From Candidatus Kapaibacterium sp. (GTDB lineage Bacteria > Bacteroidota > Ignavibacteria > Palsa-1295), in NCBI GenBank assembly GCA_038210275.1, contig JBBQWV010000014.1:5930-69929 (forward strand): a DNA stretch of 64,000 nt. The letters run 5' to 3'. A program made the translations under genes and the position numbers. Each line of letters starts with the position of its first letter. The stretch's first letter is position 1. Shown piece after piece: positions 11,340 through 42,639 of this stretch. The notes beneath the pieces are model-generated. The model did no database searches and had not been told where the DNA came from. It was given only the letters and a program-made list of their open reading frames with translations.

Positions 11340-11364
11340 ATTTAAAAATGCTTATTTGGAATAT

Positions 11365-19340: not shown

Positions 19341-19385
19341 GTCATTGCGAGGAGTCCGCTTGCGGATGACGTGGCAATCTAAAAA
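19341..19385 (+). repeat. Family-1 palindromic repeat unit (GTCATTGCGAGG-hairpin-GGCAATCTAAAAA), left boundary of the 19.3-20.2 kb island
   Basis: It matches the units at 20150-20195 (inverted), 21213-21324, 24014-24126, 29289-29331 and 42597-42639. Confidence 0.7.
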
Positions 19386-19473
19386 TTTTAAGTGTTTAAC
19401 AAATCCAACATTTTAGTTAGCCTCGCCTGCGGAAGTCGCATATTTGCAACAACAAATCACTAAGGAAAACAAG

Positions 19474-19602
19474 ATGAAATGTAGGTATAATTACGGAACA
19501 GTCATTAGGGTATCGCCGGATATTGATAGCTATGGTGTGCAACGACTTATTGACTATGGGAAGTATCTCGAAGAGACTGCCAAAAGCAAAGCAATCTGAT
19601 GT
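19474..19602 (+). CDS. Candidate 42-aa small ORF (MKCRYNYGTVIRVSPDIDSYGVQRLIDYGKYLEETAKSKAI)
   Basis: An AAGGA sits 9 nt upstream of the ATG. It is the only non-overlapping small ORF inside the gene-free island, and no homology is recognisable. Confidence 0.15.
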
Positions 19603-19847
19603 AGATAAACTTGCTAATAAGATCAACGTCACTAATTTTTGTCGGAAGCAAAATACCAAAGCTTAAATTTGGCTGGGTATATTTCCTGAACCTCCTTTTT
19701 ACTAAAATATATATATTTTCTGTGGAGTTTTGTGGTAAAAATCCCTAAGGATTCTAAGAATTACAAATATTTCCAAAATCATCAAAAAAATCTTTGGCAC
19801 TTCCAGCTCAATTTCGCCGATTTTGAAAATAGTTTGGTTTGGGCACC

Positions 19848-19878
19848 TTGACAAAAGCACATTTCGTTCGTATATTTG
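19848..19878 (+). promoter_or_regulatory. Canonical promoter TTGACA-N17-TATATT (also matches Bacteroidetes TAtaTTTG -7 element) facing rightwards with no ORF downstream
   Basis: TTGACA lies at 19848-19853, a 17-nt spacer follows, TATATT lies at 19871-19876, and TATATTTG at 19871-19878. The predicted TSS is near 19884. Confidence 0.35.
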
Positions 19879-20149
19879 CATTACAAACTTCGACAAAGTA
19901 TATTTTTGTATGAGTTTTTGGCATCATGCGTCCTGTATTGATGCTTCTGAAAAGCCCACAACCTAGCCTTCTATTCCTTTTGATATTTTGCTTCGATGGC
20001 ACTTGGAGCGTAATCCTCGCCGATAAATGGAAAAATAATGAAAGAGAGATATGAGGAAACGAGCAATCGTGGGAGGTGTGCTTTTCTAAACTACGATACT
20101 ACGATAAAATCAATGAATCTCAAACCCTGAGATTTACTACTACGATAAC

Positions 20150-20195
20150 TATTTGAGATTGCCACGTCGTCCGCAAGCGGACTCCTCGCAATGAC
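20150..20195 (-). repeat. Family-1 repeat unit in inverted orientation, right boundary of the island; followed by T8
   Basis: The sequence GATTGCCACGTCGTCCGCAAGCGGACTCCTCGCAATGAC is the exact reverse complement of the hairpin variant at 19341-19385. Confidence 0.7.
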
Positions 20196-20204
20196 ACTTT
20201 TTTT

Positions 20205-20236
20205 TACTAACTACTAAACTACTAAACTACTAAACT
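20205..20236. repeat. Tandem 8-bp repeat (CTAAACTA) x4
   Basis: The sequence is ctaactactaaactactaaactactaaactacc. Confidence 0.6.
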
Positions 20237-20351
20237 ACCACCTAATAAACAAATTCGTATCCAGTTTTTCATGATCGGAGAGTGATCCTCAGAAGGGATA
20301 TCGCTGTGATCTGTTCATTGACAATTTAATAAATAAATCAAAAGTCAAAAC

Positions 20352-20396
20352 TTTAAAGTCAAAAAAGGGGTCGCAACCCTTTTGACTTTTTACTTT
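20352..20396. terminator. Long palindromic hairpin (AAAGTCAAAAAAGGGGTCGCAACCCTTTTGACTTTTT) flanked by A- and T-runs; likely bidirectional terminator for the kds-lptC operon
   Basis: A stem of about 14 bp carries a GC core and is flanked by AAAGTCAAAA direct repeats. It lies 190 bp downstream of the lptC-like stop on the minus strand. Confidence 0.5.
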
Positions 20397-20521
20397 TGAG
20401 TTTTGACTTTGTATTGGCAGGCTAAAGCCATGCGGCTACGGGGAAAGCGCACGCAATGTGCCCCTACGAATCTCAGGAATCCTATTAATCTCATAAATCC
20501 CAGTTCAGACAATGTGTATTG

Positions 20522-20545
20522 ACGGACGGACTGAGAGTCCGTCCC
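20522..20545. repeat. Family-2 perfect palindrome GGACGGACTgagAGTCCGTCC
   Basis: It matches the palindromes at 51154-51200 and 52099-52115. The adjacent CTAAAGAC...AACTAACGACTG (20571-20598) matches the repeats in the atp intergenic regions. Confidence 0.6.
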
Positions 20546-20584
20546 ACTGGAGATTATTCTCTTCGTTCTGCTAAAGACCAACAA

Positions 20585-21217
20585 CTAACGACTGCCCGTA
20601 TCCTTCCGTACTACGATCGGAGCTTGCGGCGGCATACTTAGTTGACTATTCGGTGTGGAGAATGTCGGGGCGTTGCTGGAATTTTCGAAGGTGTTTGTGG
20701 GTGCGTCAATGATCGGAAGAAGAATTCTGTAGTTGACGAGATCCTGATCGCTTTCGAAGCCATGCCCGCGAGTGATGCGTCCGGATTTTTCGGAAATTTT
20801 GACAAATGCATCGGAGTGAAGTTTGTGTGTGCCGTTATTCCATAGCAAAGAATCGGTTTGCACAAGCGTCCCCGAATCGCTGAGGACTTTGACACTGTCA
20901 TACGCCGTCATGTTCTTCGTGTTGTCGTCAATATAGGCGCGACGTGAAGTCAGGACGGATGAATGATTACTTTCGCGATCAAAAAAATCCACGCGCACAC
21001 TGGAATCCAACATCGTATAACGCTTCTGCTCAAAAACGCGAACGCCAATAGCATTCATCACGGCACGAATTTTTCCTTCGCTGGAAAATGCCATGCGCGT
21101 ATGAGCGCTTGTCTGCGACGGCATTTCTTCCGTTGATACAAGAGGTGCAGTGCTTGGCTTGACTTCGTTGGTTGCACAGGAAGCGAGGAGGAAGAGGGGT
21201 GTGATAAAAAATGTCAT
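20585..21217 (-). CDS. lptC: LptC-like periplasmic protein (LPS export), lipoprotein-type signal
   Basis: After start correction to MTFFITPLFLLASC, the length (about 210 aa) and position immediately downstream of kdsD match the kdsD-lptC arrangement. The sequence similarity to LptC is weak. The track ORF start at 21346 reads through a family-1 repeat. Confidence 0.5.
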   Translation of the reverse strand: MTFFITPLFLLASCATNEVKPSTAPLVSTEEMPSQTSAHTRMAFSSEGKIRAVMNAIGVRVFEQKRYTMLDSSVRVDFFDRESNHSSVLTSRRAYIDDNTKNMTAYDSVKVLSDSGTLVQTDSLLWNNGTHKLHSDAFVKISEKSGRITRGHGFESDQDLVNYRILLPIIDAPTNTFENSSNAPTFSTPNSQLSMPPQAPIVVRKDTGSR

Positions 21218-21324
21218 TGCGAGAAATCGCGAAGCGACACCGAAGCAATCTAAAAATCCAAAGTTTACCAATACTTTTAAGATTTTAGATTGCCAAGTCG
21301 GGTTAAAGCCCTCCTCGCAATGAC
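21213..21324. repeat. Family-1 composite element: two units in head-to-head inverted orientation (~112 bp, MITE-like) between kdsD and lptC
   Basis: The element reads GTCATTGCGAGAAATCGCGAAGCGACACCGAAGCAATCTAAAAA...TTTTAGATTGCCAAGTCGGGTTAAAGCCCTCCTCGCAATGAC. Confidence 0.75.
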
Positions 21325-21342
21325 ATGTTAATGAATTGTTCT

Positions 21343-22338
21343 TCAATTTATCCCTGCTTTCACGATATCATGCAAATGTATCATTCCGATAACGATGCCG
21401 GCTCCATCCACGACCGGAAGCTGCATGACTTTCGGATTGGTATCTTCCATGAGGTGTAGCGCATCGAAGGCAAGAATATCGGCAGTCGTCGTCTTTGGAG
21501 ATGCTGCCATGAGTTCGGCAGCAGTGACTTTGCGGGTATCTAACTGCTCATGCGATTGAAAAAATCGTCGGAGATCACCATCGGTTACGATGCCCAGAAG
21601 TTCCCCGCTTTCGCCGATCACACATGCTGCACCAAACCGTTTGCCGGAGATTTCCTGCATAATGGAATTCAGTGATGAGTCTTTTTTGATACGCGGAATA
21701 TTGTCGCCGCTTACCATCAGATCGCGAACGTGCATCGTCAACTTTCTTCCAAGCGCTCCGCCGGGATGAAGTTTTGCAAAATCTTCACTGGTAAAATTCC
21801 GTGCTTCCAAGAGCGCAATAGCAAGCGCATCGCCTATAACAAGCTGTGCCGTCGTCGAAGAAGTCGGCGCGAGATCATGGGGGCACGCTTCTTCTTTTAT
21901 GATCGGATAAAGCACTACGCCATTAGATTTCTTCGCAGCATTAGCAAGCCGCGAAGTTGAAGACGAAGTGATCGCAATAATTGGAACGATGGAATTCAAG
22001 AGAGAAGTCAGTTCGTCGGATTCTCCACTTTTCGAAAGTATTATCATCACATCATCTGACGATACTAATCCAATATCGCCATGTGCGGCTTCACTCGGGT
22101 GAAGAAAAATTGCAGGAGTGCCGGTGGAAGTCAACGTGGATGCGGTCTTGCGGGCTATATGTCCGGATTTCCCCATACCGCTGACGATGACTCTACCTTT
22201 GCACGAAAGCAAAATATCACAAGCTTTTGCGAAATCAAGTTCATCGAGTGAGTCAATAGTTTGCTGTAAGGCAAGCGTTTCGACAGCGAAGGTTCGCTTT
22301 GCGGACTTGAGATATGATTCTGAGTTCTTGCTATGCAC
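21343..22338 (-). CDS. kdsD: Arabinose-5-phosphate isomerase (KpsF/GutQ/KdsD; SIS + tandem CBS domains)
   Basis: The SIS motif reads GRVIVSGMGKSGHIARKTASTLTSTGTPAIFLHPSEAAHGDIG. The C-terminus carries a CBS pair (IPRIKKDSSLNSIMQEI...GIVTDGDLRR). Confidence 0.9.
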   Translation of the reverse strand: MHSKNSESYLKSAKRTFAVETLALQQTIDSLDELDFAKACDILLSCKGRVIVSGMGKSGHIARKTASTLTSTGTPAIFLHPSEAAHGDIGLVSSDDVMIILSKSGESDELTSLLNSIVPIIAITSSSTSRLANAAKKSNGVVLYPIIKEEACPHDLAPTSSTTAQLVIGDALAIALLEARNFTSEDFAKLHPGGALGRKLTMHVRDLMVSGDNIPRIKKDSSLNSIMQEISGKRFGAACVIGESGELLGIVTDGDLRRFFQSHEQLDTRKVTAAELMAASPKTTTADILAFDALHLMEDTNPKVMQLPVVDGAGIVIGMIHLHDIVKAGIN

Positions 22339-22340
22339 TG

Positions 22341-23081
22341 TTATTTTCCGAATAGTTTTTGGAATATACTCTTCTTCGGTTTCACGGTTTCAATGATGAT
22401 TCCTGTTGTATCGAATTTGCGATGTGCTTTTTTATCGTATTCAAGCAGCGCTTTGATATATTCGGTATCGGTGAAATCATCAACCATCTCGAAGAACGAA
22501 GCTGGATGACTGATTAGTTTGGCATCGCGAATATGCTTTGTCCTCAAAAGCTCGTCATAAAAGTTGGTAAGCGGAAGAAGTTGGTTGAATCCTGAACTCT
22601 CATGATGCAGCCAAAGCACTTTTTTTGCAACACTAATTGCAAGAATATATTTTAGTGAGCCATTCGTATCTTTGATCGCAATTTCACGAACTTTCTGCGA
22701 TGTTGCGGGGCAAGGATCACCGCTTTTCCAATAGGAATAACACCACAGATTCGTGATCTGCGGCGAATCAGGGATTGGGAAAACTCCGGAAAACTGAACT
22801 TCAAGCTGTCCATCAATATTGTGATCATGAATGCTGATGGCAAGCGGCAAATTATTGATCAAGCATTCTCCATACCCTACAACAGGCGGCATACCGAGTG
22901 TGAGATCGATCGGTGAAATTATTTTATCAATGAGCAGATTTCCTTCGCCCCATCTTCCATCACCGATGACTTGCGAGGTTTTAATAAAATCATGATATGG
23001 TTTGTACGCCGGAATATTTTCCGGAAGAAGCCGAAAAAGTAAATCTAGTTCTTGTGAAGAAAGTGATCGAGGATAGATCAT
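22341..23081 (-). CDS. Uncharacterised 246-aa protein embedded in the KDO operon
   Basis: Its stop is 2 nt from the kdsD start and its start overlaps the kdsA stop, so it is translationally coupled. I recognise no motif; it has no HAD DxDGT signature and so is not KdsC. Confidence 0.7.
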   Translation of the reverse strand: MIYPRSLSSQELDLLFRLLPENIPAYKPYHDFIKTSQVIGDGRWGEGNLLIDKIISPIDLTLGMPPVVGYGECLINNLPLAISIHDHNIDGQLEVQFSGVFPIPDSPQITNLWCYSYWKSGDPCPATSQKVREIAIKDTNGSLKYILAISVAKKVLWLHHESSGFNQLLPLTNFYDELLRTKHIRDAKLISHPASFFEMVDDFTDTEYIKALLEYDKKAHRKFDTTGIIIETVKPKKSIFQKLFGK

Positions 23082-23087
23082 CGAAAA

Positions 23088-23918
23088 TTACTGTTCAGTA
23101 AATCTGAATTGCAAAAGCGAACGGAGCAAAGCTTCAAGTTCACCAAGCGGAAGTTGGGACTGGGCATCGCTCTTAGCTTTCGCCGGATCGGGATGCGTTT
23201 CGATGAAAAGTCCGTCAATGCCGACAGCCATTGCAGCGCGGGCAAGCGGTGCGATGAATTGGCGATTGCCGCCGCTGATTCCATTTTGTGATGGTCGCTG
23301 AACGGAATGCGTAGCATCATAAATGATGGGCGAACCAAATTCCTTCATGATCTCAAGTGAACGAAAATCAACAATAAGATCGCCATAACCAAACGACGTT
23401 CCGCGTTCAGTAAGCAAAATATTATTGTTGTCTTTGCTTGTGACTTTTTCTTTTGCAAATTTCATATCAAATGGCGACATAAACTGTGCTTTCTTGATAT
23501 TGATCACTTTTCCTGTCTCGGCAGCCGCTTCAAGAAGATCGGTTTGCCTGGCAAGAAAAGCAGGTATCTGCAAAACATCACAAACTTCCGCAGCTAATGC
23601 CGCTTCACCTGGAAGATGAATATCTGTTAGGATAGGAAGAGAGAATTCTTTTTTAATATCGGCAAGATACGAAAGAGCTTTTTCGTCGCCGATACTTGAA
23701 ATGCTTGTGCCGCTTGTCCGATTGGCTTTGCGATAGGAAGATTTAAATATAAAATTCACCGGCAATACGCTTTGAATTCTACAAAGTTCAGTTGCAACTT
23801 GCTGAAGCAATTCTTTCGATTCGACCAAGCATGGTCCCGCAATAACAGGAAATGGAACGGCTCCAAAAAAAGAGATGCTTCGGTTGTCCGGCGATATAAT
23901 GGTGACGTTTTCTTTCAT
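23088..23918 (-). CDS. kdsA: 2-dehydro-3-deoxyphosphooctonate aldolase (KDO-8-phosphate synthase)
   Basis: PVIAGPCLVESKELLQQVATEL...ANRTSGTSISSIGDEKAL...TDIH is the KdsA/DAHP-synthase-family core, and the protein is 276 aa. Confidence 0.92.
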   Translation of the reverse strand: MKENVTIISPDNRSISFFGAVPFPVIAGPCLVESKELLQQVATELCRIQSVLPVNFIFKSSYRKANRTSGTSISSIGDEKALSYLADIKKEFSLPILTDIHLPGEAALAAEVCDVLQIPAFLARQTDLLEAAAETGKVINIKKAQFMSPFDMKFAKEKVTSKDNNNILLTERGTSFGYGDLIVDFRSLEIMKEFGSPIIYDATHSVQRPSQNGISGGNRQFIAPLARAAMAVGIDGLFIETHPDPAKAKSDAQSQLPLGELEALLRSLLQFRFTEQ

Positions 23919-24013
23919 TCACTATTGATGGAAAGCCATAGAACAAGTGGTGGGTAGTAAAGATTTGCACAGGGAAAAGAATCCAAATACTCTCATTGTA
24001 AGTATAAAAGAAT

Positions 24014-24126
24014 GTCATCGCGTGTTGGGGCTTTAGCCCGACGTGTAATCTAAAAACTTGAAGATTGGATCATTATTAAAGATTTTAGATCGCCACGTCG
24101 TCCGCAAGCGGACTCCTCGCGATGAC
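24014..24126. repeat. Family-1 composite element (two inverted units, ~113 bp) between kdsA and plsC
   Basis: The element reads GTCATCGCGTGTTGGGGCTTTAGCCCGACGTGTAATCTAAAAACTTGAAGATTGG...TTTTAGATCGCCACGTCGTCCGCAAGCGGACTCCTCGCGATGAC. Confidence 0.75.
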
Positions 24127-24157
24127 ACTATAATAATATCACATTAAATAGAAAAAT

Positions 24158-24868
24158 TCACACGAGCATTTCGCGCACGGCTTCTTCTGTTCTTTGCATC
24201 AGATCAATCTCGCGTTCACGATCATTCTCATATTTATAAGAAGTTTCTAACGGAGCGCCAATCGAAACCGAAATAATTTTATTCGAAGAGGGAAGTTTCG
24301 AAGTTCTTGGCATTAATTCGAATGAGCCTTTGATCGCAATGGGTATAACCTTCGCGCCGCTTTCATACGCCATGTGAAATGCACCGCGTTTGAATGACTG
24401 TAGCTCTCCTGAATCTGTTCGTGTACCTTCAGGAAAGAGAAGAACCGATGCACCGCTTTGAATGATTTCTGTAGCTTTTGCTAAAGTGATTTTCGTTTTA
24501 GATACTTTTGAACGATCAATAATAATCATTGGACTTAGTAGTAGCGCCCAACCCCAGATGGGAATTCGGGTGAGTGTATGTCGCAGAATCAAGCGAACAT
24601 CAGCAGGAATTGCAGCGAAAAGAATTGGAATATCAGTATAGCTTGAGTGATTAGCAACGAAAACGTAATGCTCTTTTTTCAGAATATTTGACGCTCCCTG
24701 CACTTGAAGTTTCACTCCGAAAAGCAGAAGAAAAGATTTGGACCAGATTCGGGCAAGCCATAAATAAGCACTGCCGCTCCTATCAAGAAGAGCGGCAGGG
24801 ATTGAGATAACTGAAAGAACGATCGTTACTATAATAAAGACGATCGTTGCAACAATACTGCGAGTCAC
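24158..24868 (-). CDS. plsC: 1-acyl-sn-glycerol-3-phosphate acyltransferase
   Basis: It has an N-terminal TM helix, the HX4D motif (ANHSSYTD) and FPEGTR. Confidence 0.85.
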   Translation of the reverse strand: MTRSIVATIVFIIVTIVLSVISIPAALLDRSGSAYLWLARIWSKSFLLLFGVKLQVQGASNILKKEHYVFVANHSSYTDIPILFAAIPADVRLILRHTLTRIPIWGWALLLSPMIIIDRSKVSKTKITLAKATEIIQSGASVLLFPEGTRTDSGELQSFKRGAFHMAYESGAKVIPIAIKGSFELMPRTSKLPSSNKIISVSIGAPLETSYKYENDREREIDLMQRTEEAVREMLV

Positions 24869-25477
24869 TTATTTAGCCGCTGAAGCGATTCCCGAATAAT
24901 TAATGCTATTAGCGACAGATTTCGCTTCATCAAGAGTAGCGCCATTTTCCGCTTCGGTGATGACGAAGATACGATCATTCACTACCACGCCGATCGTACC
25001 TTGATTGGAGTTCTTCTTCCAATCAATCCAACCCGGATTGCCATTAAATTTTTCCGAGTGCAATGACTGGTCATTCGTTTCAAGGTTCATGGTCAATAGT
25101 GCTGAATACTTTCCGGATAAACCCGCAATGTTGTTGTAATCAAGTATGGATACCTTGATTTGCTTTTCACCATTTTGGTAGGTTTGATTGGCATGAGAAT
25201 ATTTTGATCCAGCCATTTCCATTTCCATTGTTTCAGGTTCACCTTTCGCGGTATAGCCTGATACGGAAGGAAGAAAACCTGCAAGAGTTTTTGCGGGGAC
25301 TGCAACGCCGGGAGTTTTATTTGCGCCACCACCTGCAGCATTCTGAGCCATTTGCTGCATACTCTTTGACATTTGCTCTGCAGCTTTCTGAGCATCATCT
25401 TCTTTCTTTGAGCAGCCTGAAATAAAGATTATTGCTGCAATTGCAACTGCGAAAATACTGAACTTGGATGTTTTCAT
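24869..25477 (-). CDS. Lipoprotein of unknown function (202 aa)
   Basis: It has a signal peptide and lipobox (IFISGC), and its start is adjacent to the plsC stop. Confidence 0.6.
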   Translation of the reverse strand: MKTSKFSIFAVAIAAIIFISGCSKKEDDAQKAAEQMSKSMQQMAQNAAGGGANKTPGVAVPAKTLAGFLPSVSGYTAKGEPETMEMEMAGSKYSHANQTYQNGEKQIKVSILDYNNIAGLSGKYSALLTMNLETNDQSLHSEKFNGNPGWIDWKKNSNQGTIGVVVNDRIFVITEAENGATLDEAKSVANSINYSGIASAAK

Positions 25478-25561
25478 TGTCGTGATAGATAGTAGTGAAA
25501 ATTGTCGTACGTTTTGATCCTCAAAAATACGATGGAAAATCTTTTGATTCGAGAAAATCGC

Positions 25562-26314
25562 TTACTTCAATCCAACTTGATCGAGCGCTAATTTCCCAAG
25601 ATAAAAAAGCATCATACCGAGAAAAACAAGAATCGGAGCTTTGCGTCCGCGAGTTTTATTTATTTCCGGAATGAGGTCACACGCACCGACATACAGTGCA
25701 GCTCCTGCGCTGAAAGCGAAAAGAAATCCGATCAATTCTTCATTGAATGTGACAAAGAAAAAGACAAGAAGCGCGCCGAGAATTGTGGAAATGCCAAGGG
25801 TAAACCCAGCATTCATCGTTTCTTTCTTTGAATGATTTCCGAGCATCATCACACTTGCAACCGTCAATCCCTCCGGAATTTTATGAAGAAGTACGGCAAC
25901 ACAAATGAGAATTCCCATTGTCGGCTTTGCGCTTGTTACTGCTGCGATTGCCATACCATCAAAGAATGCGTGAAGTGTGAGTCCGCCAACAGCACCTAAT
26001 GCTGAGGAATGCGAAACTCCGGCATGCTGATGAGTTTCTTCGCCAAAATGAAAATGCTGAACGAGTGTATGCTCGAAAAAATGCAAGACGCTAAAACCGA
26101 GCAGCATTGCAATGACCGCATGATCGGGATTATTTGTCAGACGAAAACTTTCCGGAATGAGATCAACGAAGACAAGAGCCAGAAGAAATCCTGCGCCGAG
26201 AGCCAGCAACGTCCTTTCCCAGCTATGGGGAAAACGTTTTGCTCGGAGTGCAAGCATTCCGCCGCCGATCTGCGCGCCTGCTGCAATAATGCTGAGTATG
26301 ATACCGAGATACAC
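25562..26314 (-). CDS. ZIP-family divalent metal (zinc) transporter, ZupT-like
   Basis: It has multiple TM helices, a His-rich loop (HHFHFGEETHQHAG), and the HKIPEG-like motif LLHKIPEGL. Confidence 0.85.
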   Translation of the reverse strand: MYLGIILSIIAAGAQIGGGMLALRAKRFPHSWERTLLALGAGFLLALVFVDLIPESFRLTNNPDHAVIAMLLGFSVLHFFEHTLVQHFHFGEETHQHAGVSHSSALGAVGGLTLHAFFDGMAIAAVTSAKPTMGILICVAVLLHKIPEGLTVASVMMLGNHSKKETMNAGFTLGISTILGALLVFFFVTFNEELIGFLFAFSAGAALYVGACDLIPEINKTRGRKAPILVFLGMMLFYLGKLALDQVGLK

Positions 26315-26427
26315 TTCTGCTAATTAAAATTAAAAATGTCGAATACTCGCTGTGGCGAGAAAATTAAAAATGGTAACGTGTAAATCCAGAATGAGGCAAA
26401 ATAATCTCAGAAATCGGTTGAATCCCT

Positions 26428-27750
26428 TTAATCACGGTTCAGACGTTTTTTTTCTTTCAGAAAATTCTTTCCGTCTTCAATGCCGCGAAGGAACATCGCA
26501 GATAATGAGAGTGGAACTTCACGGATCATGATGCGATAGGATAGGATTGCTTGTAATAGCATGGAAATGCAGAATGCAATTGCCGCTCCAACAGTATGGA
26601 GAAGTGGCAGTAAGGTCACGGCGAGAATCACATTAACGATAAGCGAAGCAAGAATAGTCTGAAAAACTTCTTTCACTTTTCCCATTCCAACAAGCGCAGA
26701 CATACCAACCATCGTGATGGGCAGAATAAAACCGCTTGCAATTAGTACACGGAAGACATTAACGGAATCATCAAACTTTCCTTTATAAAGTATCTGAAAA
26801 ATAAGGGGAGCAAAAATAATAAGAAGTATTGAGAGTGGGATCATCAAGATATAGAGAAAGCTTGTTGTCTTCTCAATAATTTTTTTCAGTGTTGCGAAAT
26901 CACCTGCAGCATAATATTTACTTGAAGCAGGGAAAACAAAAATGCCTTGAGTATCACGAAGCACATCAAAGCCCTTAAAAAAGAATTTTGCAACTTGGTA
27001 ATTGGCGAGCGCTTCAACCCCAAGAAAAGCCGGAACAAGCAAACTGTCAAGATTTTGCTGAAAGACATGGACTGAACCGGTTGCAGTTTGGTAACGAGTA
27101 AAATGAAAAATCTTTTTCAACATTGTGCGAGAGAAACGTATCCGCCAACTCAGATCCTTTCGTGCAAGAAAAAGTGAGAGCAATGAACTGCATGCGCCGG
27201 TTATGATCGTGATGAAGATTACATCACTTGCTGTATGCAATTTATCCATGAACGCGTAGATCGTCACGACGATACTTGATCCACCAAAATTAATAAGATC
27301 GGCAAAGAATAAATTCTTTGTATGAAATCGCATTTGAAAAATCTTGCTGGTGATGACTCGCGGAATGGTAACGATGACAAGAATAATCAGGCTGGGGATG
27401 AGGTCAGGAAGTTCGGGGCTATTAAGCAGATAAGAAAATGTACCCGGAAAAACAATAAGGAGCGACAATGAAATCAGAAGAAAAGCAAAAAAGAGAAGTG
27501 AGGTTGCCGTCAGAAGTTCTTGAAGATCATTTGCTGTATCCACTCCGAATTTAACGATTGCCTGCAATGCGAAACTATCAGCAAAAGTGAAGATCATTCC
27601 GAAGATCACTTGAAAGAGCGCAAGTTCACCGCTTTCACTTTTTGGAAGAATCTTGAAAACAAGGATCGTCATCACCACACCATAGACGGCTGGCAGAAGC
27701 TTCGTTGCAAAACCCCATGCACCTTTTTCTAAGTGCGCACTGAATTTCAT
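26428..27750 (-). CDS. MOP-superfamily polysaccharide/oligosaccharide flippase (Wzx-like)
   Basis: It is 440 aa with about 12-14 predicted TM helices, and it lies immediately upstream of the GT4 gene. Confidence 0.7.
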   Translation of the reverse strand: MKFSAHLEKGAWGFATKLLPAVYGVVMTILVFKILPKSESGELALFQVIFGMIFTFADSFALQAIVKFGVDTANDLQELLTATSLLFFAFLLISLSLLIVFPGTFSYLLNSPELPDLIPSLIILVIVTIPRVITSKIFQMRFHTKNLFFADLINFGGSSIVVTIYAFMDKLHTASDVIFITIITGACSSLLSLFLARKDLSWRIRFSRTMLKKIFHFTRYQTATGSVHVFQQNLDSLLVPAFLGVEALANYQVAKFFFKGFDVLRDTQGIFVFPASSKYYAAGDFATLKKIIEKTTSFLYILMIPLSILLIIFAPLIFQILYKGKFDDSVNVFRVLIASGFILPITMVGMSALVGMGKVKEVFQTILASLIVNVILAVTLLPLLHTVGAAIAFCISMLLQAILSYRIMIREVPLSLSAMFLRGIEDGKNFLKEKKRLNRD

Positions 27751-27753
27751 TAA

Positions 27754-28755
27754 TTATTTAACAAGTTCTAAAAGTTTTTTTGCGCGATTCTCAATATCGA
27801 ATAATTTTACATGTTCACTGCATTGCTTTCGCTTTGCAATATCGGCAGTAAAACTTTTTCTTATCGCTTCGGCAACGCTTTGGATATTTTTACGATCAAT
27901 GATAAATTCCGTCCCGCCGGTTACTTCTTCAAGAGAAGGGACATTCGATACAACAGGAATGCAGCCGCAACTCATTGATTCAGCAGTTGCAACGCCGAAT
28001 GTTTCATCAATAGAAAGCTGGCAGTATGCAGAAGCGGTATGATAATAATTAAGAAGCTCCTCGTACTTGATCGGTCCCTCGACAATGGTTACATTCTTCA
28101 GATCTTTTGCTTCATTGCGTGCATGTTCCAAAGCAGGACCTCGAATACCGATGAGATCGAACTCAACATCCGGCATCACTTTGGCTGTCTCAAGAAATAC
28201 ATCGATCCCTTTTAAGATGTAATCGAGATACGTCACTAACTGCGTGACGGTCAGCGCGCGCTTTGCTCTTGGATCATCCGAAAATGGAAAGCGTTTTATA
28301 TCAACAGCGTTGTAGATTACGGTGCTTGGTGCATGGTGTTTCGAATTCGTATCAAGCAGATGCTGTGCGTAATTGCTAACAGGAAATACGTGCGTTGCAA
28401 AGCGATGAGTATTGCGAACAAGAAACCACCGGAAGGGGCGAACCCGCGCACCGCTTTTTACTTCAGGAGTATAGGTGACGTCGAAGCCGCCTGCGACAAC
28501 ATACACTTTTTTGCGAAGCAGACGGGCGATGATCGTTGGAACAAGGGTGTAATAATCGGCGAACCAGAAAAAAAGTACATCGGAGCCGAAGAGCGAAAAG
28601 AGAATTTGAAATTCTAACTTAATAAGACTTGTCGCTGTACTAAAACCACGTTTAACATTGGCATCAACGATCTTGAGTTTATGCTTTCGGCGCAGAATTT
28701 CAATGTCATTCTGCACAAAACTCGATTGCGCTGGTCCGACGAAGGTGATAGTCAT
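27754..28755 (-). CDS. Family-4 glycosyltransferase (GT-B, retaining)
   Basis: The C-terminus has the GT4 E-x7-E region (SIDETFGVATAESMSCGCIPVVSNVPSLEEV). Confidence 0.85.
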   Translation of the reverse strand: MTITFVGPAQSSFVQNDIEILRRKHKLKIVDANVKRGFSTATSLIKLEFQILFSLFGSDVLFFWFADYYTLVPTIIARLLRKKVYVVAGGFDVTYTPEVKSGARVRPFRWFLVRNTHRFATHVFPVSNYAQHLLDTNSKHHAPSTVIYNAVDIKRFPFSDDPRAKRALTVTQLVTYLDYILKGIDVFLETAKVMPDVEFDLIGIRGPALEHARNEAKDLKNVTIVEGPIKYEELLNYYHTASAYCQLSIDETFGVATAESMSCGCIPVVSNVPSLEEVTGGTEFIIDRKNIQSVAEAIRKSFTADIAKRKQCSEHVKLFDIENRAKKLLELVK

Positions 28756-28777
28756 TCTATTTAATCAGCAGGCGAGA

Positions 28778-29269
28778 TTAATTAACGTCACCAAAGAGAA
28801 GCTTATCACCGATCGGATAATAATGAAAACTTGCCATTTTTTTCTTGTTGCCTTTAATGAGATTGATCTGGTAATGCATCAATTGTCCCAAAGGAGTATC
28901 CTTGCTTTTAAAAACGGCAAAATATTCTTGATGCATTTCCGGATAATCAGTTAGCATCTTCTTAATTTTCTCCACAACATCATGGACGTGTTTTGCATCA
29001 TCGGGATTAGTAAGTGAAGCGGCATGATTCCAATTCACAACTTTTCCGGTATCGCGGCAGGCAATTTCGGCAGCCGCGCTATCAAGATTTCCTGCAAGCG
29101 CGTATTTTTTCAAATTAGTAATATGCGCAAACATCTCATCCGAAATAGAATCGCGCACCATTTGAGAGAGCATGACGACATCTTCGCGTGGCATTTTTCC
29201 CATTCCGCCTTGTGCGTAAAGAGTTGACGAAAGAAAAATTGCAGAGACAATAATAAATAAGTATTTCAT
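28778..29269 (-). CDS. Secreted protein of unknown function (~163 aa)
   Basis: I trimmed the start to MKYLFIIVSAIFLSSTLYAQ, which is a signal peptide. The longer ORF start reads through a family-1 repeat. Confidence 0.5.
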   Translation of the reverse strand: MKYLFIIVSAIFLSSTLYAQGGMGKMPREDVVMLSQMVRDSISDEMFAHITNLKKYALAGNLDSAAAEIACRDTGKVVNWNHAASLTNPDDAKHVHDVVEKIKKMLTDYPEMHQEYFAVFKSKDTPLGQLMHYQINLIKGNKKKMASFHYYPIGDKLLFGDVN

Positions 29270-29288
29270 AATTGTGTTCAAGTAAAGT

Positions 29289-29331
29289 GTCATTGCGAGC
29301 TGGGCTTTAGCCCTGCGTGGCAATCTAAAAA
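29289..29331 (+). repeat. Family-1 repeat unit (single) between divergent genes
   Basis: The unit reads GTCATTGCGAGCTGGGCTTTAGCCCTGCGTGGCAATCTAAAAA. Confidence 0.7.
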
Positions 29332-29464
29332 CTTGATCATTGGCAGTACGCTCAGGTTTAATAGATACCAAGCCAGTAATGATACGAATAATTGTAAATT
29401 TGATACGGCGACCTTTTCATATTTAATGAATGTTTCATCGCCTCAGAATAAGATAATGTTTTTT

Positions 29465-30949
29465 ATGACGCAAAAATTTCAAAATTATATAGATGGCGTT
29501 TGGTGTGACTCATCAAACGGACAAATTTTCGAGAATCGGAACCCTGCAAATTGGGACGATCTGATCGGTTCTTTTCCGCTTTCAACGACGGCAGATGTTG
29601 ATAGAGCGGCGATTTCGGCGGCAGAAGCCTATAAGACATGGCGGCTTGTTCCTGCACCAACCCGCGGTGATATTTGCCGCCGCGCTGGAGATATCATGCT
29701 TCGCCGCAAAGATGAGATTGCCGCCATCATGACAAGGGAAATGGGAAAGACGCTAACCGAGACTCGTGGCGATGTGCAAGAGGGAATTGATACAGCATTT
29801 TATTGTGCGACTGAAGGCAGAAGACTTTTTGGAATCAATACACCGAGTGAACTTCCGAATAAATTGAATCTTTCATTTCGCGTTCCAATAGGAGTATGTG
29901 GACTTATTACTCCATGGAATTTTCCTATGGCAATTCCGACATGGAATATTTTCCCCGGACTTGTTGCAGGAAATACGTTTATCTTTAAACCAGCCGAAGA
30001 CACTCCGCATACGGCAAATATTCTAGTCGAGATCTTGATGGAAGCAGGTTTGCCAAAAGGAGTTCTTAATATTGTGCATGGTGCTGGAGAAGTTGTAGGA
30101 GTAGCGATCACACAGCACCCACTGGTTCGCGCACTGAGTTTTACCGGTTCGACAAAAACCGGAGAGATCGTCGCACAAACTTGTGGCAAGAACACCAAAC
30201 ACGTCTGTCTCGAAATGGGTGGGAAGAATGCACAGATCGTGATGCCGGATGCCGATATGGAACTTGCAATTCATGGGGTGCTGTGGGGTGCATTTGGAAC
30301 GACAGGTCAGCGCTGCACGGCAACGTCGCGCTTAATTTTGCATGAAGATATTCATGATACATTTATTGAGCAGCTTATTATTCGTGCGAAGGCATTAAAA
30401 CTTGGTGATGGTTCTGTTGATGGAATAGAAGTAGGACCTATTATCAATAAAAAACAACACGAGAATATTGAACGCTACGTTGCTATCGGTAAAAAAGAAG
30501 GAGCGATTTGCGTGCTTGGTGGTGAGAGAGCTGAAGAAGGTACATTGAAAAACGGCTGGTTCTATAAGCCAACGATTTTTACTAATGTCCTTCCAAACTC
30601 AACGATTGCGCAGGAAGAAATTTTTGGTCCGGTGTTGTCGGTGATCAAATGTACTTCACTGGAAAATGCAATTGAGATTTCCAATAGTGTGATCTACGGA
30701 CTTTCTTCAAGTATTTATACTCGCGATATTAATGCTGCACTTGTTGCAGTCAGAGACATCGAAACGGGCATTGCATATATCAACGCTCCGACTATCGGAG
30801 CTGAAGCGCACATGCCGTTCGGTGGCGTCAAAGCTACCGGCAACGGACACCGCGAAGGCGGCTGGACAGTCTTTGACTTCTATACAGAATGGAAGGCCGT
30901 ATATATTGATTATTCAGGGCATTTGCAGCGGGCGCAGATAGATAATTAG
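29465..30949 (+). CDS. NAD(P)+-dependent aldehyde dehydrogenase
   Basis: It has the catalytic Cys region (GQRCTATSRL), the FTGSTKTGEIV and EEIFGPVLSV motifs, and the ELGGKN-like loop (LEMGGKNAQIV). I set the start at MTQKFQNYIDGVW (29465), because the upstream 44 codons overlap the repeat. Confidence 0.9.
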   Translation: MTQKFQNYIDGVWCDSSNGQIFENRNPANWDDLIGSFPLSTTADVDRAAISAAEAYKTWRLVPAPTRGDICRRAGDIMLRRKDEIAAIMTREMGKTLTETRGDVQEGIDTAFYCATEGRRLFGINTPSELPNKLNLSFRVPIGVCGLITPWNFPMAIPTWNIFPGLVAGNTFIFKPAEDTPHTANILVEILMEAGLPKGVLNIVHGAGEVVGVAITQHPLVRALSFTGSTKTGEIVAQTCGKNTKHVCLEMGGKNAQIVMPDADMELAIHGVLWGAFGTTGQRCTATSRLILHEDIHDTFIEQLIIRAKALKLGDGSVDGIEVGPIINKKQHENIERYVAIGKKEGAICVLGGERAEEGTLKNGWFYKPTIFTNVLPNSTIAQEEIFGPVLSVIKCTSLENAIEISNSVIYGLSSSIYTRDINAALVAVRDIETGIAYINAPTIGAEAHMPFGGVKATGNGHREGGWTVFDFYTEWKAVYIDYSGHLQRAQIDN

Positions 30950-32122: not shown

Positions 32123-32227
32123 GTATCTTGTTCAAATTTCGTCAAGAGGAGCAGCCTTTGGCTGCTCCTTTAGTATTTTCTGTATTTTACTTTCATGAGA
32201 CAGTGAGTTGTTTCTCATTTCCCCATC

Positions 32228-33934: not shown

Positions 33935-33952
33935 AATTCGATAAGATACCGT

Positions 33953-35596: not shown

Positions 35597-35814
35597 TTCG
35601 GGTAGTTTGTAGCCCCTAAGTCTCTTCCACGACGAGAGGGGATTCCTTACATCGTTTTTCTCACTTCGTTCGAAAAATCTCCGTTCGGAATGATAATCAA
35701 ACTGTGCCACTACCAAAGTTTATACGTACGAACGCTCCGACGCCCATTCGTGTTGCCGTATTTCTATAATAATTTCAATAGTACCCCAACGAGACGAAAT
35801 ATAAAAAATACTCA

Positions 35815-36972: not shown

Positions 36973-37025
36973 ATTATGGACGTATATTTGCTATAAGTTT
37001 ATTCATCTTTTTATTACGTTTACCC

Positions 37026-38164: not shown

Positions 38165-38166
38165 TT

Positions 38167-38916
38167 ATGATACACACTATTTTACATCGCCATTTTTTTC
38201 GTGCCTGTGTACTGGTTTTGATATGCGCCGGATCAGTTCTCGCGCAAAAATCCGATACGACTCGCAAGCGAATTCCGCGCGAGGAGATCGGTATTGTAAA
38301 AAAGCTGACGGTCATGCCGTATGCAACGATCAGCTATAATATCCAGTCTGGTCAGGCATTTCCGAAAAGCGCACAGGGAATAGGTTACGGTTTCGGACTT
38401 GCATTCGATCTCACCGAAGATAAGCAGCCGGTCGGAGCGTATTTTGATTTCGCCTATCAAGATATGCGAGCACATGCCGCTGACGGCGCTTGCAAGGTTG
38501 TCGGACCTGATACGATCGGAGCTGTTGCAGTCTCTGTTCCGGTGACACATTATTTTTCTTATGCGGTGTTCGAAGGATTTGTAAAACTTCAAACTCTTAA
38601 AAGCAACGGATATTTTCTCATTGGCGGAAGTTTAGGCGTTGCAACTACGGGCTTAACTGTTTCAGAAGGTCCGGGTACGGCAAGTTATTCGGAATGGAAA
38701 ACAGTAGATACCTACCATGAATTGCGTCTTGATATTCGAGCGGGTCTCGGTATTAAGCTGGGGTACATTTCCGGGCATCAACTCGTCTTTGAAGCAAGAT
38801 TCGGATACCCTGTGACAACTGTGCTCGGAGATTATCACGACTTCTGCAATGGCTCGGATGCGCACGGATCGTGGCGGGTAGTGACTCTGCAAGCTAATAT
38901 TGGCTTGCGATTATAA
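38167..38916 (+). CDS. Small outer-membrane beta-barrel-like protein (paralogue 3 of 3)
   Basis: It has a signal peptide and the motifs IGYGFGLAFDL, AYFDFAYQD and LRLDIRAGLGIKLGY. Its start is 3 nt after the previous stop. Confidence 0.5.
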   Translation: MIHTILHRHFFRACVLVLICAGSVLAQKSDTTRKRIPREEIGIVKKLTVMPYATISYNIQSGQAFPKSAQGIGYGFGLAFDLTEDKQPVGAYFDFAYQDMRAHAADGACKVVGPDTIGAVAVSVPVTHYFSYAVFEGFVKLQTLKSNGYFLIGGSLGVATTGLTVSEGPGTASYSEWKTVDTYHELRLDIRAGLGIKLGYISGHQLVFEARFGYPVTTVLGDYHDFCNGSDAHGSWRVVTLQANIGLRL

Positions 38917-38981
38917 GGTGTTACTTTCGTAACCGGGCTTCGTAAACGAAGCCGTACATTTTTTGATAGTATTTATTTTTT

Positions 38982-39659
38982 ATGAAAAAATCCTGGTTAA
39001 TTATTGGCGGTATTGTTTTCTTTTTGCTGATCCTCTTTTTCTGGTGGCGCACTACGTATAACGGACTGATTCAAAAGGAAGAAAATATTAAACTTCAGTT
39101 GGGGCAGTTGAATAATGTGTATCAGCAGCGACTTGACCTGATCCCGAATCTTGTTGCAACCGTGCAAGGATCTGCCGTAGCAGAACGTCAGACGCTTGAC
39201 GAAGTCATCGGCGCACGTGCGAAAGCGACAGGGGTTACCTTGACTCCCGAAGCTTTGAAAGACCCGCAGGCTTTTGCGAATTTCCAAAAACTTCAGGATA
39301 ATGTTTCGAGCGCAATTTCGAGATTACTCGTCACTGTAGAAAAATATCCCGATCTGAAATCGCAGGCAAATTTCTCAACGCTGATGTCGCAGATCGAAGG
39401 ACAGGAAAGCCGCGTCCGCCTTGAACGTAATCGTTACAATGAAAACGTGAATGACTACAACCGCAGCATCCGTGTATTTCCATCCAGCATAATCGCAGGG
39501 ATGTCCGGCTTCACAAAATATGAATATTTCCAAGCTGCTCCCGGAGCCGAGAATGCTCCGAAAGTAAATTTCCCCGGAAGCACAACGCCCGAAGCTCCTA
39601 CAACCGCGCCTGCCAATACTCCGGCGCAACGAGGACCCGAGAGACCGTCGGGAAAATAA
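38982..39659 (+). CDS. lemA: LemA family protein
   Basis: It has an N-terminal TM helix and LemA-characteristic segments (YNGLIQKEENIKLQLGQLNNVYQQRLDLIPNLV...ERNRYNENVNDYNRSIRVFPSSIIAGMSGF), plus a Pro/Ala-rich tail. Confidence 0.85.
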   Translation: MKKSWLIIGGIVFFLLILFFWWRTTYNGLIQKEENIKLQLGQLNNVYQQRLDLIPNLVATVQGSAVAERQTLDEVIGARAKATGVTLTPEALKDPQAFANFQKLQDNVSSAISRLLVTVEKYPDLKSQANFSTLMSQIEGQESRVRLERNRYNENVNDYNRSIRVFPSSIIAGMSGFTKYEYFQAAPGAENAPKVNFPGSTTPEAPTTAPANTPAQRGPERPSGK

Positions 39660-39708
39660 ATTACGGAGTAGAAGTTATGAATTGGGATTTCTAATTCCTA
39701 ATTGAGCA

Positions 39709-42588
39709 TTACCATACCCATTCAGGAATATGCACTACCGAACCGATGGCACTGCGAATCGGACGCCATATTGCCCAGAAGAGACTGACGTTGGGATCAA
39801 TATCAGCATTGATTTCTCCAGTATGGAGTGGGCGATCAAGTTCGGGTGTATTATGCGAACGCATAAAAAGTGCATTTGCCAAAAATGAGAATAATCCCGG
39901 CGGAAATTTATCCCATCTGAAAAATTTGACGCGAAGACTATCATATTGCGGCACGAGCGTTCCGGTCATTAAAGTATTTTTCAGCTCAATATTGAATTGA
40001 GCTGACCTTACAACTCCGCTTAGGGTGAAAGGCTCTGTAAGTGCAAGATAATTATTTAAGAGCGATGCGTCCATACTTCCGGCAGTCCCCTTTATTTTCA
40101 GATCAAGAACCGGATTCATAAGTTGATACTCCAAATTAAAATTAACTAAACCTTCATTCATGAGCTTCAGATCGCCTTCAATTGGTGTTACAAAATGCTG
40201 CCCATGAGTACTTGAATCATTGGATATCTCACCAATGTGGGCATTGACATTAGTCATTATGATCGTACCGGGTTCCGTCGTATCTGGCCAGCTTTCGCGA
40301 AATGAGATAATTCCATTTTGGGCAGCAACAGATTTTATGCCCAGAGGCACTCGTATTTTTTGAAATATTTCCTGCGGATATATTTCCTTGGATGTATGAG
40401 GCGCTTCGGGTTTGCGCCTATCGCCATAGACATGAAGCGCCCAGTTGGCTAATTGAATGCTATCGGCAAATATGCCTTTACCCAAAAGTAATCGTTGATA
40501 ATCAAGACCTTCAATGGAAATATGCGGCGCAAAAAGCTTGATGCGTTCAGTCCGAAATTGAAATGCGTTTCCAAAAGAATCTTCGGGGATAAGTGGATAT
40601 ACGATTACTGAATCAATCGAAAGTGTACGTTTACGAAAATCACCTTTTATTCCACTTTCGGAATATCTATTTACCGCACCCGGCGTTTGCTGCGTCAATG
40701 CTCCGATCTGAAAAGTCCCGGCATCGCTGAAAAGCATTCCGCGTTTGGTGATCCATGAGTTTTTATCGAGCTTAAAATTTTTCAGTGATACTTGAAAATT
40801 CATAATTGAATCTCCGCGTCCGGGCGGATTTTTCGGATCATCAAGAAAGTGAATGCCATAAAGACTTCCACCTGACACGCTTACAGAACCAAAGGATGCG
40901 ATGGGCAATAGTAAGGGCAGCGGATATTCTTTAAATTGACGGATCCTCTCAAGAGGGTCGCTCGAAATTATCGAATCAAAACTTGTGATAGGAGTCGTTG
41001 CGCTTTCAGCAAGATATATTTTTGGGTCGCGCAGGGTAAGGCTTGAAGAAAATAATCCTTCGCGCATCAGAAGTTTCCAAATATTTACTCCACTCACTTC
41101 TGCAGATTTTAAACGAACAAGCTTTAAGCCTTTTACCGAAGGCTCTAAATTGATGTTCGATATTTTCAAAGATTTTTCAGTGCCATCCATCCGACCGAAT
41201 TTCAGATTTCCAAGCGATGTATTCACACTGCTTTCGCCTTTTATTCCGTAGTTTGCATTCTTGCTGAAAAAATTAGAGATATTTGCAAATGGCGTTGTTT
41301 TATCAACTTTGAATTGCCGAAGGGACAATGTAATTCTTTTTAGTGCACTGACGGAATGAGCTTGCGGAAGCAGCGCATAAACTTCAGCATTTGTTACATT
41401 GACCGATTGCAACTCAATGCTCGGAAGTAAACTCGGAAGCGGAATGAGATCAGATGCTGAGAGATGATCAGCATAACTTGGATGCGGGCGAATCTGTGAC
41501 ACATCCTGCAATTCAATGCGAGGATTATTTATTGTCGCATTTCTGGCATGAAATCCAAGACCTGCAAGTGCAGCAGACCAATCAAGTCCGGAGAATTCTA
41601 TTTGCTTAATAGAAGTTTTTCTGATCTCTTCGATCGGTTTTCTTGCAATGATATTTGAGATCATCATTGATGAATCAATGAGATCACCATCCACTGATGC
41701 AACATCAATATCCGTTACGCCAAGCGAATCGACATGAGAAATATCTTCTGCGTGGAACGTTGCACTCTTGCAGAAGAAAGTGGAGAGAGCTGTTTTATAT
41801 GTAGGCTCATCAAGATAAAAATCACGGAATTCAAGCGAGGCATTTTTGACAAGTAAACCACCCCCATTTAGCGGCAACGCACTTTTACCATCATTAGATA
41901 TCGCGGCAGGGGACGTAGGGGTACCTTCAGAGAAATACAATTGGGCATTTTCTATCTTAATAGTTTTTGATGACACCGCCGGAAGAAAACTTGGAAGCAA
42001 TCCGGTATTTGCTGCAAATTTAGGAAGCGTACCGGGACGTAAATAAATTTTTGGAGAACGAATATTTATAGAGCCGGCAAAAAGACCTTTTTGTAAAATT
42101 AATTTCCAGTAATCAAGACCGGCAATGACCACGGTATCTGTCGAGAACCTGTCAAGCGGAGTTGCGACACCGAAATCGGCAGAGCTTGTATCCGTCTTCC
42201 CGTCTTCTGATCTTCCATTATCAATGATCCTCACGCCGGTAAGGATAAGACTATCTTTATTTGGGGATAGGGTGATGCTATTCATTTGCAATGAATAGCG
42301 GCGTCCAAGACGGTCAACGACGAACTGCTTCAGTTTCGGCTCGACAGCATAATGAACGATCGTGTTTGGAAAAAAAGTTACAATAATACCGCCTATGATC
42401 GCAACAAGGAGAATTGCTCCTGCGACAGAATAAATGATCTTTCGTCTTCGTGAATGTGGTTTTCGCGTTTTGACGCCTTCGGTCTTACGAACGTCTTCTC
42501 TTTCTGGCATAATAGTGGTTTTAATACTTATTGGGGAAGTACTCATATCAAACGAAATTGGGCTTGTATCGGTTCGAAAGAGAGTCAA
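39709..42588 (-). CDS. Large membrane-anchored protein, AsmA/TamB-like (DUF748-type) (959 aa)
   Basis: A single N-terminal TM helix (IIYSVAGAILLVAIIGGIIVTFF) is followed by a long beta-rich periplasmic region. I made the family call from architecture only. Confidence 0.45.
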   Translation of the reverse strand: MTLFRTDTSPISFDMSTSPISIKTTIMPEREDVRKTEGVKTRKPHSRRRKIIYSVAGAILLVAIIGGIIVTFFPNTIVHYAVEPKLKQFVVDRLGRRYSLQMNSITLSPNKDSLILTGVRIIDNGRSEDGKTDTSSADFGVATPLDRFSTDTVVIAGLDYWKLILQKGLFAGSINIRSPKIYLRPGTLPKFAANTGLLPSFLPAVSSKTIKIENAQLYFSEGTPTSPAAISNDGKSALPLNGGGLLVKNASLEFRDFYLDEPTYKTALSTFFCKSATFHAEDISHVDSLGVTDIDVASVDGDLIDSSMMISNIIARKPIEEIRKTSIKQIEFSGLDWSAALAGLGFHARNATINNPRIELQDVSQIRPHPSYADHLSASDLIPLPSLLPSIELQSVNVTNAEVYALLPQAHSVSALKRITLSLRQFKVDKTTPFANISNFFSKNANYGIKGESSVNTSLGNLKFGRMDGTEKSLKISNINLEPSVKGLKLVRLKSAEVSGVNIWKLLMREGLFSSSLTLRDPKIYLAESATTPITSFDSIISSDPLERIRQFKEYPLPLLLPIASFGSVSVSGGSLYGIHFLDDPKNPPGRGDSIMNFQVSLKNFKLDKNSWITKRGMLFSDAGTFQIGALTQQTPGAVNRYSESGIKGDFRKRTLSIDSVIVYPLIPEDSFGNAFQFRTERIKLFAPHISIEGLDYQRLLLGKGIFADSIQLANWALHVYGDRRKPEAPHTSKEIYPQEIFQKIRVPLGIKSVAAQNGIISFRESWPDTTEPGTIIMTNVNAHIGEISNDSSTHGQHFVTPIEGDLKLMNEGLVNFNLEYQLMNPVLDLKIKGTAGSMDASLLNNYLALTEPFTLSGVVRSAQFNIELKNTLMTGTLVPQYDSLRVKFFRWDKFPPGLFSFLANALFMRSHNTPELDRPLHTGEINADIDPNVSLFWAIWRPIRSAIGSVVHIPEWVW

Positions 42589-42596
42589 CGGATAAT

Positions 42597-42639
42597 GTCA
42601 TTGCGAGGAGTGCTTTAGCACGACGCGGCAATCTAAAAA
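42597..42639 (+). repeat. Family-1 repeat unit (single)
   Basis: The unit reads GTCATTGCGAGGAGTGCTTTAGCACGACGCGGCAATCTAAAAA. Confidence 0.7.

Follow-up and report, generated by a model that had tools for sequence, protein, structure and literature searches.

The eight copies of the palindromic repeat Family-1 in a 64-kb stretch of the Candidatus Kapaibacterium sp. contig JBBQWV010000014.1 (the window, taken at its whole length) most probably, at about 70% by our estimate, form a long-form subfamily of the CGTC/TGTC-tagged superfamily of repetitive extragenic palindromic (REP) sequences, the Ssn-related motifs (SRMs). They would be putative hairpin sites in single-stranded DNA (ssDNA) for the GIY-YIG nuclease Ssn, and may spread and decay like REPINs. 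The class of element is already known, and its long-form variant is missed by the published search patterns. The first-pass annotation of this DNA had described dispersed palindromic repeats of MITE/BIME-like architecture, single or dimeric, at operon joints; our analysis supports a dispersed, oriented hairpin family of REP/BIME-like kind at intergenic joints. The annotation had recognised neither the known family (CGTC/TGTC-tagged REPs, SRMs) nor the GIY-YIG partner gene.

Searching the window for GTCATTGCGAGG with at most one mismatch gave eight matches versus 0.34 expected, a number reached in none of 100 shuffles. The match at 18912 is a coincidence within pcrA, and u5 (24012 on the plus strand, GTCATCGCGTG) is a more diverged Family-1 unit. 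The 3' box GGCAATCTAAAAA is likewise over-represented. A profile of the aligned units, run with nhmmer --max, retrieved exactly eight units (u1 to u8) at E<=1e-10 and none other below E=0.5, in agreement with the at least eight copies listed at first (Table 1). The dimers u3/u4 and u5/u6 span 116-117 bp, and the pair u1/u2 has the same mutual orientation at a larger distance. A related GTCATTCTGAG subfamily, previously noted at 11365-11466 and 12489-12501, was confirmed as one dimer and one head-only fragment. All three dimers and the u1/u2 pair carry their tags on the outside. The unit loci lie in the ~9% of the window that is free of maximal open reading frames (ORFs), or in the extreme 5' extensions of such ORFs.

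Each unit of ~45 nt reads, in order, R-TGTC, ATTGC, GAGG-like purines, a hairpin of 3-5 bp with a 3-6-nt loop, CG(W/Y)G, GCAAT, C and TAAAA(A/T). It thus consists of an invariant, unpaired RTGTC tag, a 5-bp clamp (ATTGC/GCAAT), a purine-rich internal loop inside the clamp in which GAGG stands opposite CGWG, a variable inner hairpin and an A-rich tail; on the top strand, A-runs flank the hairpin on either side. The columns invariant over the eight units include TGTCAT, GCG, ATCT and AAA, which bears out the near-invariant flanks described earlier. In particular, TGTC before the palindrome is invariant in 8/8 units, as is (A/G)ATC, i.e. the C right after it; GTC is the position needed for cleavage by the Neisseria nuclease SsnA, and the C is the position most critical for its binding.

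This anatomy resembles that of the Neisseria NTS CGTCATTCCCGCGMAVGCGGGAATCYRG (CGTCATTCCCGCG..GCGGGAATC), which flanks ssnA, as do SRMs (Chenal et al. 2025, PMC11893778). The ssnA product is a 94-aa single-domain GIY-YIG protein of cd10448, and SRMs flank its homologues in many phyla. SsnA binds the NTS hairpin solely in single-stranded DNA and on just one of the two strands, does not bind RNA, and cuts a few nucleotides upstream of the hairpin. Mutagenesis revealed that cleavage needs the three nucleotides preceding the palindrome, whereas binding hinges most on the following C. In N. meningitidis, SsnA restricts transformation by NTS-bearing DNA, and the NTS-ssnA-NTS arrangement was likened by its authors to an insertion sequence (PMC11893778). 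Similar to NTS and SRMs, the Family-1 units have (C/T)GTC directly before a palindrome that starts with ATT and ends with AAT, followed by C; they are oriented, mostly intergenic, clustered and found in many phyla, and in other genomes the same unit design flanks genes of ~95-aa single-domain GIY-YIG proteins with the tags outward. Compared to NTS, an oriented subset of dRS3 of ~28 nt whose 8-bp stem is unbroken and whose loop has 3 nt, the window units are longer and replace that stem by the short clamp, the internal purine loop and the variable inner hairpin.

The units also share many features with the CGTC-tagged (often TGTC-tagged) REP superfamily, whose stems start with AT, whose tails are short and which occurs mostly as head-to-head (HH) dimers (Di Nocera et al. 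2013, PMC3733652). It includes the families CGTC-1 to -4, dRS3 and the Rickettsia repeats RPE-4 and RPE-6, and is known from Proteobacteria, Chlorobi, Bacteroidetes, Spirochaetes and Thermotogae (PMC3733652). Both have a terminal CGTC/TGTC tag, a stem opening with A-T and T-A, a short unpaired tail, a predominance of HH dimers, members in Bacteroidetes and Chlorobi, and no dedicated transposase.

In other genomes, the likeness extends to the gene beside the units. We examined 108 genome loci selected by the motif, and 80 metagenome loci (L110-L189) chosen solely by a small GIY-YIG protein. Among the former, unbiased clustering of the ORFs beside the units found no recurrent neighbour family and no transposase; small GIY-YIG ORFs (95-97 aa, Pfam GIY-YIG) occur in two of them, L049 and L075, where the gene sits within arrays of ATTGC-type and ATTCC-type units on both sides. 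In the 80 metagenome loci, which encode relatives of the L049 and L075 proteins, the head motif attains a density of 2.07/kb up to 250 bp from the gene, compared to ~0.05-0.15/kb beyond 750 bp. An unbiased 6-mer test of the 300-bp flanks ranked TGTCAT top (9.7-fold enriched, in 77/80 loci), with GCGAAG enriched 5.6-fold. A unit lies within 600 bp of the gene in 51/80 loci, and on both sides of it in 29/80. Complete units (tag, clamp, complementary clamp and C), the ATTGC type included, were found at most 400 bp from the gene in 81 of 82 loci, the chance rate being ~1.2 per 64 kb. Of 34 nearest units upstream, 27 share the orientation of the gene, and of 44 nearest units downstream, 27 are inverted, so that the tags point outward, as in the window dimers. 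The encoded proteins have the Tyr/Tyr/Glu spacing of SsnA (Y6/Y17/E64).

Base pairing is the conserved feature at the level of the family. Among 411 units near Ssn-like genes, clamp positions 4-5 are fully Watson-Crick complementary in 325 (~26 expected), distributed over seven pair types (CT/AG, TC/GA, CC/GG, GC/GC, AC/GT, AT/AT and TT/AA). ATTCT/AGAAT is the commonest clamp type beside these genes, and several types are mixed in half of the loci, as in the window. As a separate observation, Ssn-like proteins with the same dominant flanking clamp type share 67% identity versus 61% otherwise (permutation p<0.0005), which could reflect co-evolving specificity or mere shared ancestry.

Within the window, 97.5% of the clamp cells are paired. 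The inner hairpins fall out of register in the MAFFT alignment, and for this reason the cores were judged by folding each unit against shuffles rather than by column covariation. Each window core indeed forms a 3-5-bp hairpin, as the first-pass annotation had claimed, but the gain over shuffles is modest (p 0.03-0.18). Its further claim of compensatory covariation holds for two clean events, in addition to the clamp pairing of the family: the unit bodies of u2 and u6 differ by a single compensated clamp change, T-A to C-G (the third difference being in the tail), and u7 and u8 by a compensated core change, G-C to T-A. However, u4 and u5 carry uncompensated changes, and in-window clamp covariation alone is not significant (135/500 shuffles).

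Whole dimers fold into long hairpins (z -5.5 to -7.9). Hairpins at operon joints could act in RNA as terminators or 3'-end mRNA stabilisers, as was proposed at first, or as attenuators. Consistent with such a role, the dimers lie between co-directional genes (kdsD/lptC and plsC-like/kdsA), the bottom strand of u1-u3 continues into a T-run, and many REPs have been argued to be transcribed (Di Nocera 2013, PMC3733652). Nevertheless, we consider this role unlikely. No unit is among the terminator-like sites of 19000-30000, while a separate hairpin at 20364-20383 does score; u7 and u8 each have divergently transcribed genes on their two sides and are upstream of either one; and A-runs are present on both sides of the hairpin. 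Moreover, single units fold weakly (z about -1 to -1.9), Rfam yielded no relevant family for the units at gathering and E-value thresholds, and relatives lack the elements at the same joints. The unit design tracks the gene of a GIY-YIG ssDNA nuclease whose Neisseria counterpart does not bind RNA, which argues for a hairpin acting at the level of DNA rather than RNA.

The pattern GTCATTGCGAG-N15-26-GCAATCTAAAA, searched in species-representative genomes, matched at least 108 stretches of many phyla. The matching taxa include Planctomycetota, Omnitrophota, Patescibacteria, Dehalococcoidia, Clostridia, Nitrospira, Helicobacteraceae, Sulfurimonas, Rickettsia/Tisiphia, Melainabacteria-like cyanobacteria, Kapaibacterium and Chloroherpeton. 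The enclosed cores comprise 100 distinct sequences of 15-26 nt with conserved edges, the first base being G in 59% and the last four CGAA, CGTG or CGCG in 89%. In the commonest core, GAGCGAAGCGACGAA, tandem G.A pairs can be placed on both sides of GCGAAGC, which we take to be the very stable DNA mini-hairpin of Hirao and colleagues. This distribution, together with a contig break inside a unit and the variation among relatives described below, refutes a local duplication confined to this region. A literature search with the literal unit sequence returned coincidental primer matches only.

In two loci (L071 5430-5600 and L061 6750-6930; Rickettsia endosymbiont), an NTS-like head GTCATTCCCGCGAAGGC adjoins CGTC-tagged Family-1 units, and four units of mixed clamp types are clustered, which connects Family-1 of the window with the classical CGTC/RPE elements. 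The canonical unit is also present, unannotated, on some plasmids, without an adjoining Ssn gene in the two records examined. Phages are not obvious carriers: a set of 2.9 million viral contigs contained just 14 matches to the motif, and the patterns used detected no relative of Ssn.

Comparison with relatives demonstrated gain and loss of unit copies in this lineage. Of the named KdsA relatives, the best come from Candidatus Kapaibacterium or Bacteroidota metagenome-assembled genomes, and four syntenic relatives have KdsA proteins 93% (L190), 94% (L191), 86% (L192) and 86% (L193) identical to that of the window. The presence/absence check suggested at first thus gave two insertions missing from relatives and a third that varies (Table 1). 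In L192 and L193, which lack the u3/u4 dimer, lptC begins at an ATGA that it shares with kdsD, and the lptC-uvrD spacer is 95 bp in L192 versus 1.39 kb in the window. In addition, a 3.6-kb short-read contig (L001, from SRR19962015), the only public one with an identical KdsA, is 100% identical to window 20526-24111 and stops inside the u6 hairpin, where a multi-copy repeat would be expected to end it. Both of its ends lie inside repeat hairpins, indicating that the repeats fragment the assemblies of this organism.

Table 1. Family-1 units, related repeats and their occurrence in four syntenic relatives (L190-L193).
Feature	Position	Strand	Arrangement and context	Relatives
u1	19339-19385	+	inverted pair with u2	
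u1-u2 spacer	19386-20149		765 bp without convincing ORF	
u2	20150-20197	-	inverted pair with u1	
u3	21211-21256	+	dimer with u4	
u4	21282-21326	-	dimer with u3	
Dimer u3(+)/u4(-)	21211-21326		tags outward (HH), 25-nt spacer; between kdsD stop and lptC signal/transmembrane segment	L190 contig ends first; present at same place in L191; absent in L192, L193
u5	24012-24056	+	dimer with u6	
u6	24082-24128	-	dimer with u5	
Dimer u5(+)/u6(-)	24012-24128		tags outward (HH), 25-nt spacer; between acyltransferase stop and kdsA start	absent in L190, L191, L192, L193
u7	29287-29331	+	single, between divergent genes (164-aa ORF, aldehyde dehydrogenase)	absent in L190, L191, L192, L193
u8	42595-42639	+	single, between divergent genes (959-aa ORF, msrA)	
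GTCATTCTGAG sister-subfamily dimer, clamp ATTCT/AGAAT	11364-11467		units 11365-11399(+) and 11442-11466(-), tags outward	
GTCATTCTGAG subfamily, head-only remnant	12491-12502	-	4 nt upstream of fabK-like start	

Inverted dimers are reminiscent of REPINs mobilised by RAYT, an IS200/IS605-like Y1 transposase, or of MITEs derived from a DDE insertion sequence. Similar to the REP/REPIN-RAYT systems and E. coli BIMEs, the Family-1 units are short intergenic hairpin repeats, often in inverted doublets, whose copy number varies among relatives, and like the former they are tied to a single-copy gene for a nuclease that recognises ssDNA hairpins. They differ, however, in the tag (TGTC, not GTAG) and in the nuclease, the recurring gene encoding a GIY-YIG protein instead of an HUH Y1 transposase, and the two systems share no sequence similarity. 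Given also that no transposase family recurs beside the units in the 108 loci, that no transposase is reported for CGTC REPs (Di Nocera 2013, PMC3733652) and that the dimer ends show no target-site duplication, a RAYT or DDE origin appears highly improbable. The exact borders of the insertions are unreadable because the intergenic flanks are too diverged from those of the closest relatives.

The copies might also be orphan relics, fossil SRMs that are inactive and slowly decaying in a genome from which Ssn was lost or in which it never became fixed. Several findings fit this: the window holds no Ssn, uncompensated substitutions separate orthologous copies and are present in u4 and u5, and 19% of the genomes with >200 SRMs lack an SsnA homologue (PMC11893778). 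By contrast, the sequences of u1, u2 and u6, from three separate loci, are almost the same, and two insertions are missing from relatives with 93-94% KdsA identity, which together suggest recent spread; the critical GTC and C are, moreover, invariant in 8/8 units. We therefore regard the relic explanation as rather unlikely.

We favour the reading of the units as SRM-type ssDNA hairpin sites, for which the following course can be proposed. The top strand would become single-stranded during replication, repair or the entry of incoming DNA, and would fold. A ~95-aa single-domain GIY-YIG nuclease (Ssn), presumably encoded elsewhere in the genome, would then bind the folded strand and, by analogy with Neisseria NTS/SsnA, nick it a few nucleotides 5' of the tag. 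The tag-outward dimers would reproduce the SRM-ssn-SRM cassette minus its gene, and thereby represent non-autonomous, REPIN-like elements. That this genome has a cognate Ssn, that it cuts the units and that the copies spread in this manner is inferred by us. The stretch enclosed by u1 and u2, with its outward tags, resembles an SRM-gene-SRM cassette in layout; searches of it yielded neither a remnant of Ssn nor an Rfam match, and it resembles no relative and none of the other loci collected.

A number of observations weigh against this reading. The published SRM string, HGTCWYN(0-2)YYVSBRHN(0-5)WNVSBRGN(0-2)RNCYNB, matches none of the eight units while it does match the NTS control, and its sole match in the window is a coincidence inside kdsD; the string spans at most ~35 nt and demands pyrimidines at the position of GCGAGG in the units. 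Families CGTC-1 to -4 have an 8-9-bp stem and a 4-5-nt loop, in contrast to the 5-bp clamp, internal loop and 3-5-bp inner stem found here, with a core whose sequence and length are hypervariable (15-26 nt across genomes). Of the 100 cross-phylum cores, only 28% surpass shuffles significantly in folding. The GIY-YIG proteins are only putative members of cd10448, judged by Pfam GIY-YIG, size, the Tyr/Tyr/Glu spacing and a weak match to the UPF0213 structure 1ZG2, and neither an Ssn gene nor a pseudogene was found in the 64-kb window by tblastn and an 80-sequence profile, the u1-u2 spacer included. Ssn is not known to have any transposition-like activity. Finally, the u3/u4 dimers of the window and L191 have many uncompensated differences, so that individual copies may be decaying rather than maintained.

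More tentatively, and with less confidence than the reading itself, Family-1 might be a distinct long-form SRM class, characterised by a conserved clamp, a hypervariable inner hairpin that is often of the d(GCGAAGC) mini-hairpin type, and flanks that are near-identical over >15 phyla, with the dimers being mobile, non-autonomous derivatives of SRM-ssn-SRM. If true, hairpins would spread genome-wide in a REPIN-like way with GIY-YIG nucleases of the Ssn type as the driving force, which would amount to a second and independent invention of the REP-RAYT arrangement, and such elements could insert into the 5' ends of genes, as at lptC. The filled and empty syntenic sites, together with the gene-less tag-outward dimers, provide comparative evidence for the hypothesis of such REPIN-like spread. 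The analysis also extends the recently described Ssn/SRM system to an uncultured Kapaibacteria-like lineage. As the published SRM string misses a widespread long-form subfamily, SRM censuses underestimate these elements. In practice, the units break short-read assemblies and yield false N-terminal extensions (lptC and the 164-aa ORF), and the variable-core design could serve the engineering of Ssn/ssDNA tools.

The genes neighbouring the units encode or resemble pcrA/uvrD, lptC, kdsD, an unknown gene of 246 aa, kdsA, a PlsC-like acyltransferase, a ZupT-like protein, a flippase, a glycosyltransferase, aldehyde dehydrogenase, msrA and proteins with type IX secretion system (T9SS) tails. The units had been said to supply an ATG creating spurious N-terminal extensions of at least three ORFs. 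Indeed, ORFs 20585-21346 and 28778-29371 run through units; however, these two and ORF 29333-30949, which begins just past u7, all start at TTG codons outside the units and not at the unit ATG. We propose that what the units do to neighbouring genes, such as extending ORFs or perhaps giving lptC a new start, is incidental.

The u3/u4 dimer lies within the former 5' end of lptC (ORF 20585-21346 in the window, 8501-9265 in L191). In both, kdsD and lptC overlap by TTGA and the frame remains open across the dimer for 43 codons, the dimer-encoded peptides differing at many positions, and the GCAATGACA of the unit contributes an ATG in the same frame, just ahead of the hydrophobic segment MTFFITPLFLLASC of lptC. 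The dimer could be either an RPE-like translated insertion or the source of a start codon relocated to the in-unit ATG. For both genes beside u7, the maximal ORFs are overcalled. ORF 28778-29371 encodes 197 aa, compared to 163-164 aa in L190, L192 and L193 and 175 aa in L191, and its extension reads through u7 (..AKAQLAMT..). Similarly, ORF 29333-30949 has 538 aa versus 494 aa, with its TTG start directly after u7.

The region harbours further repeats. A second hairpin family (GGGACGGACT-loop-AGTCCGTCCC) occurs at 20524-20544 and 51153-51201 of the window and at 9300-9560 of L191, where several copies lie downstream of lptC; contig L001 breaks inside one copy. It is flanked by tandem arrays of 7-8 nt: TACTAAAC at 20205-20250, AGTCATT/CTAAAGA at 51500-51596, and GTTTGGTAG in L191. 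At 20335-20415, an 80-nt palindrome of AAAGTCAAAA-like repeats surrounds the G+C hairpin at 20364-20383, which has a terminator score on either strand and is the probable lptC terminator.

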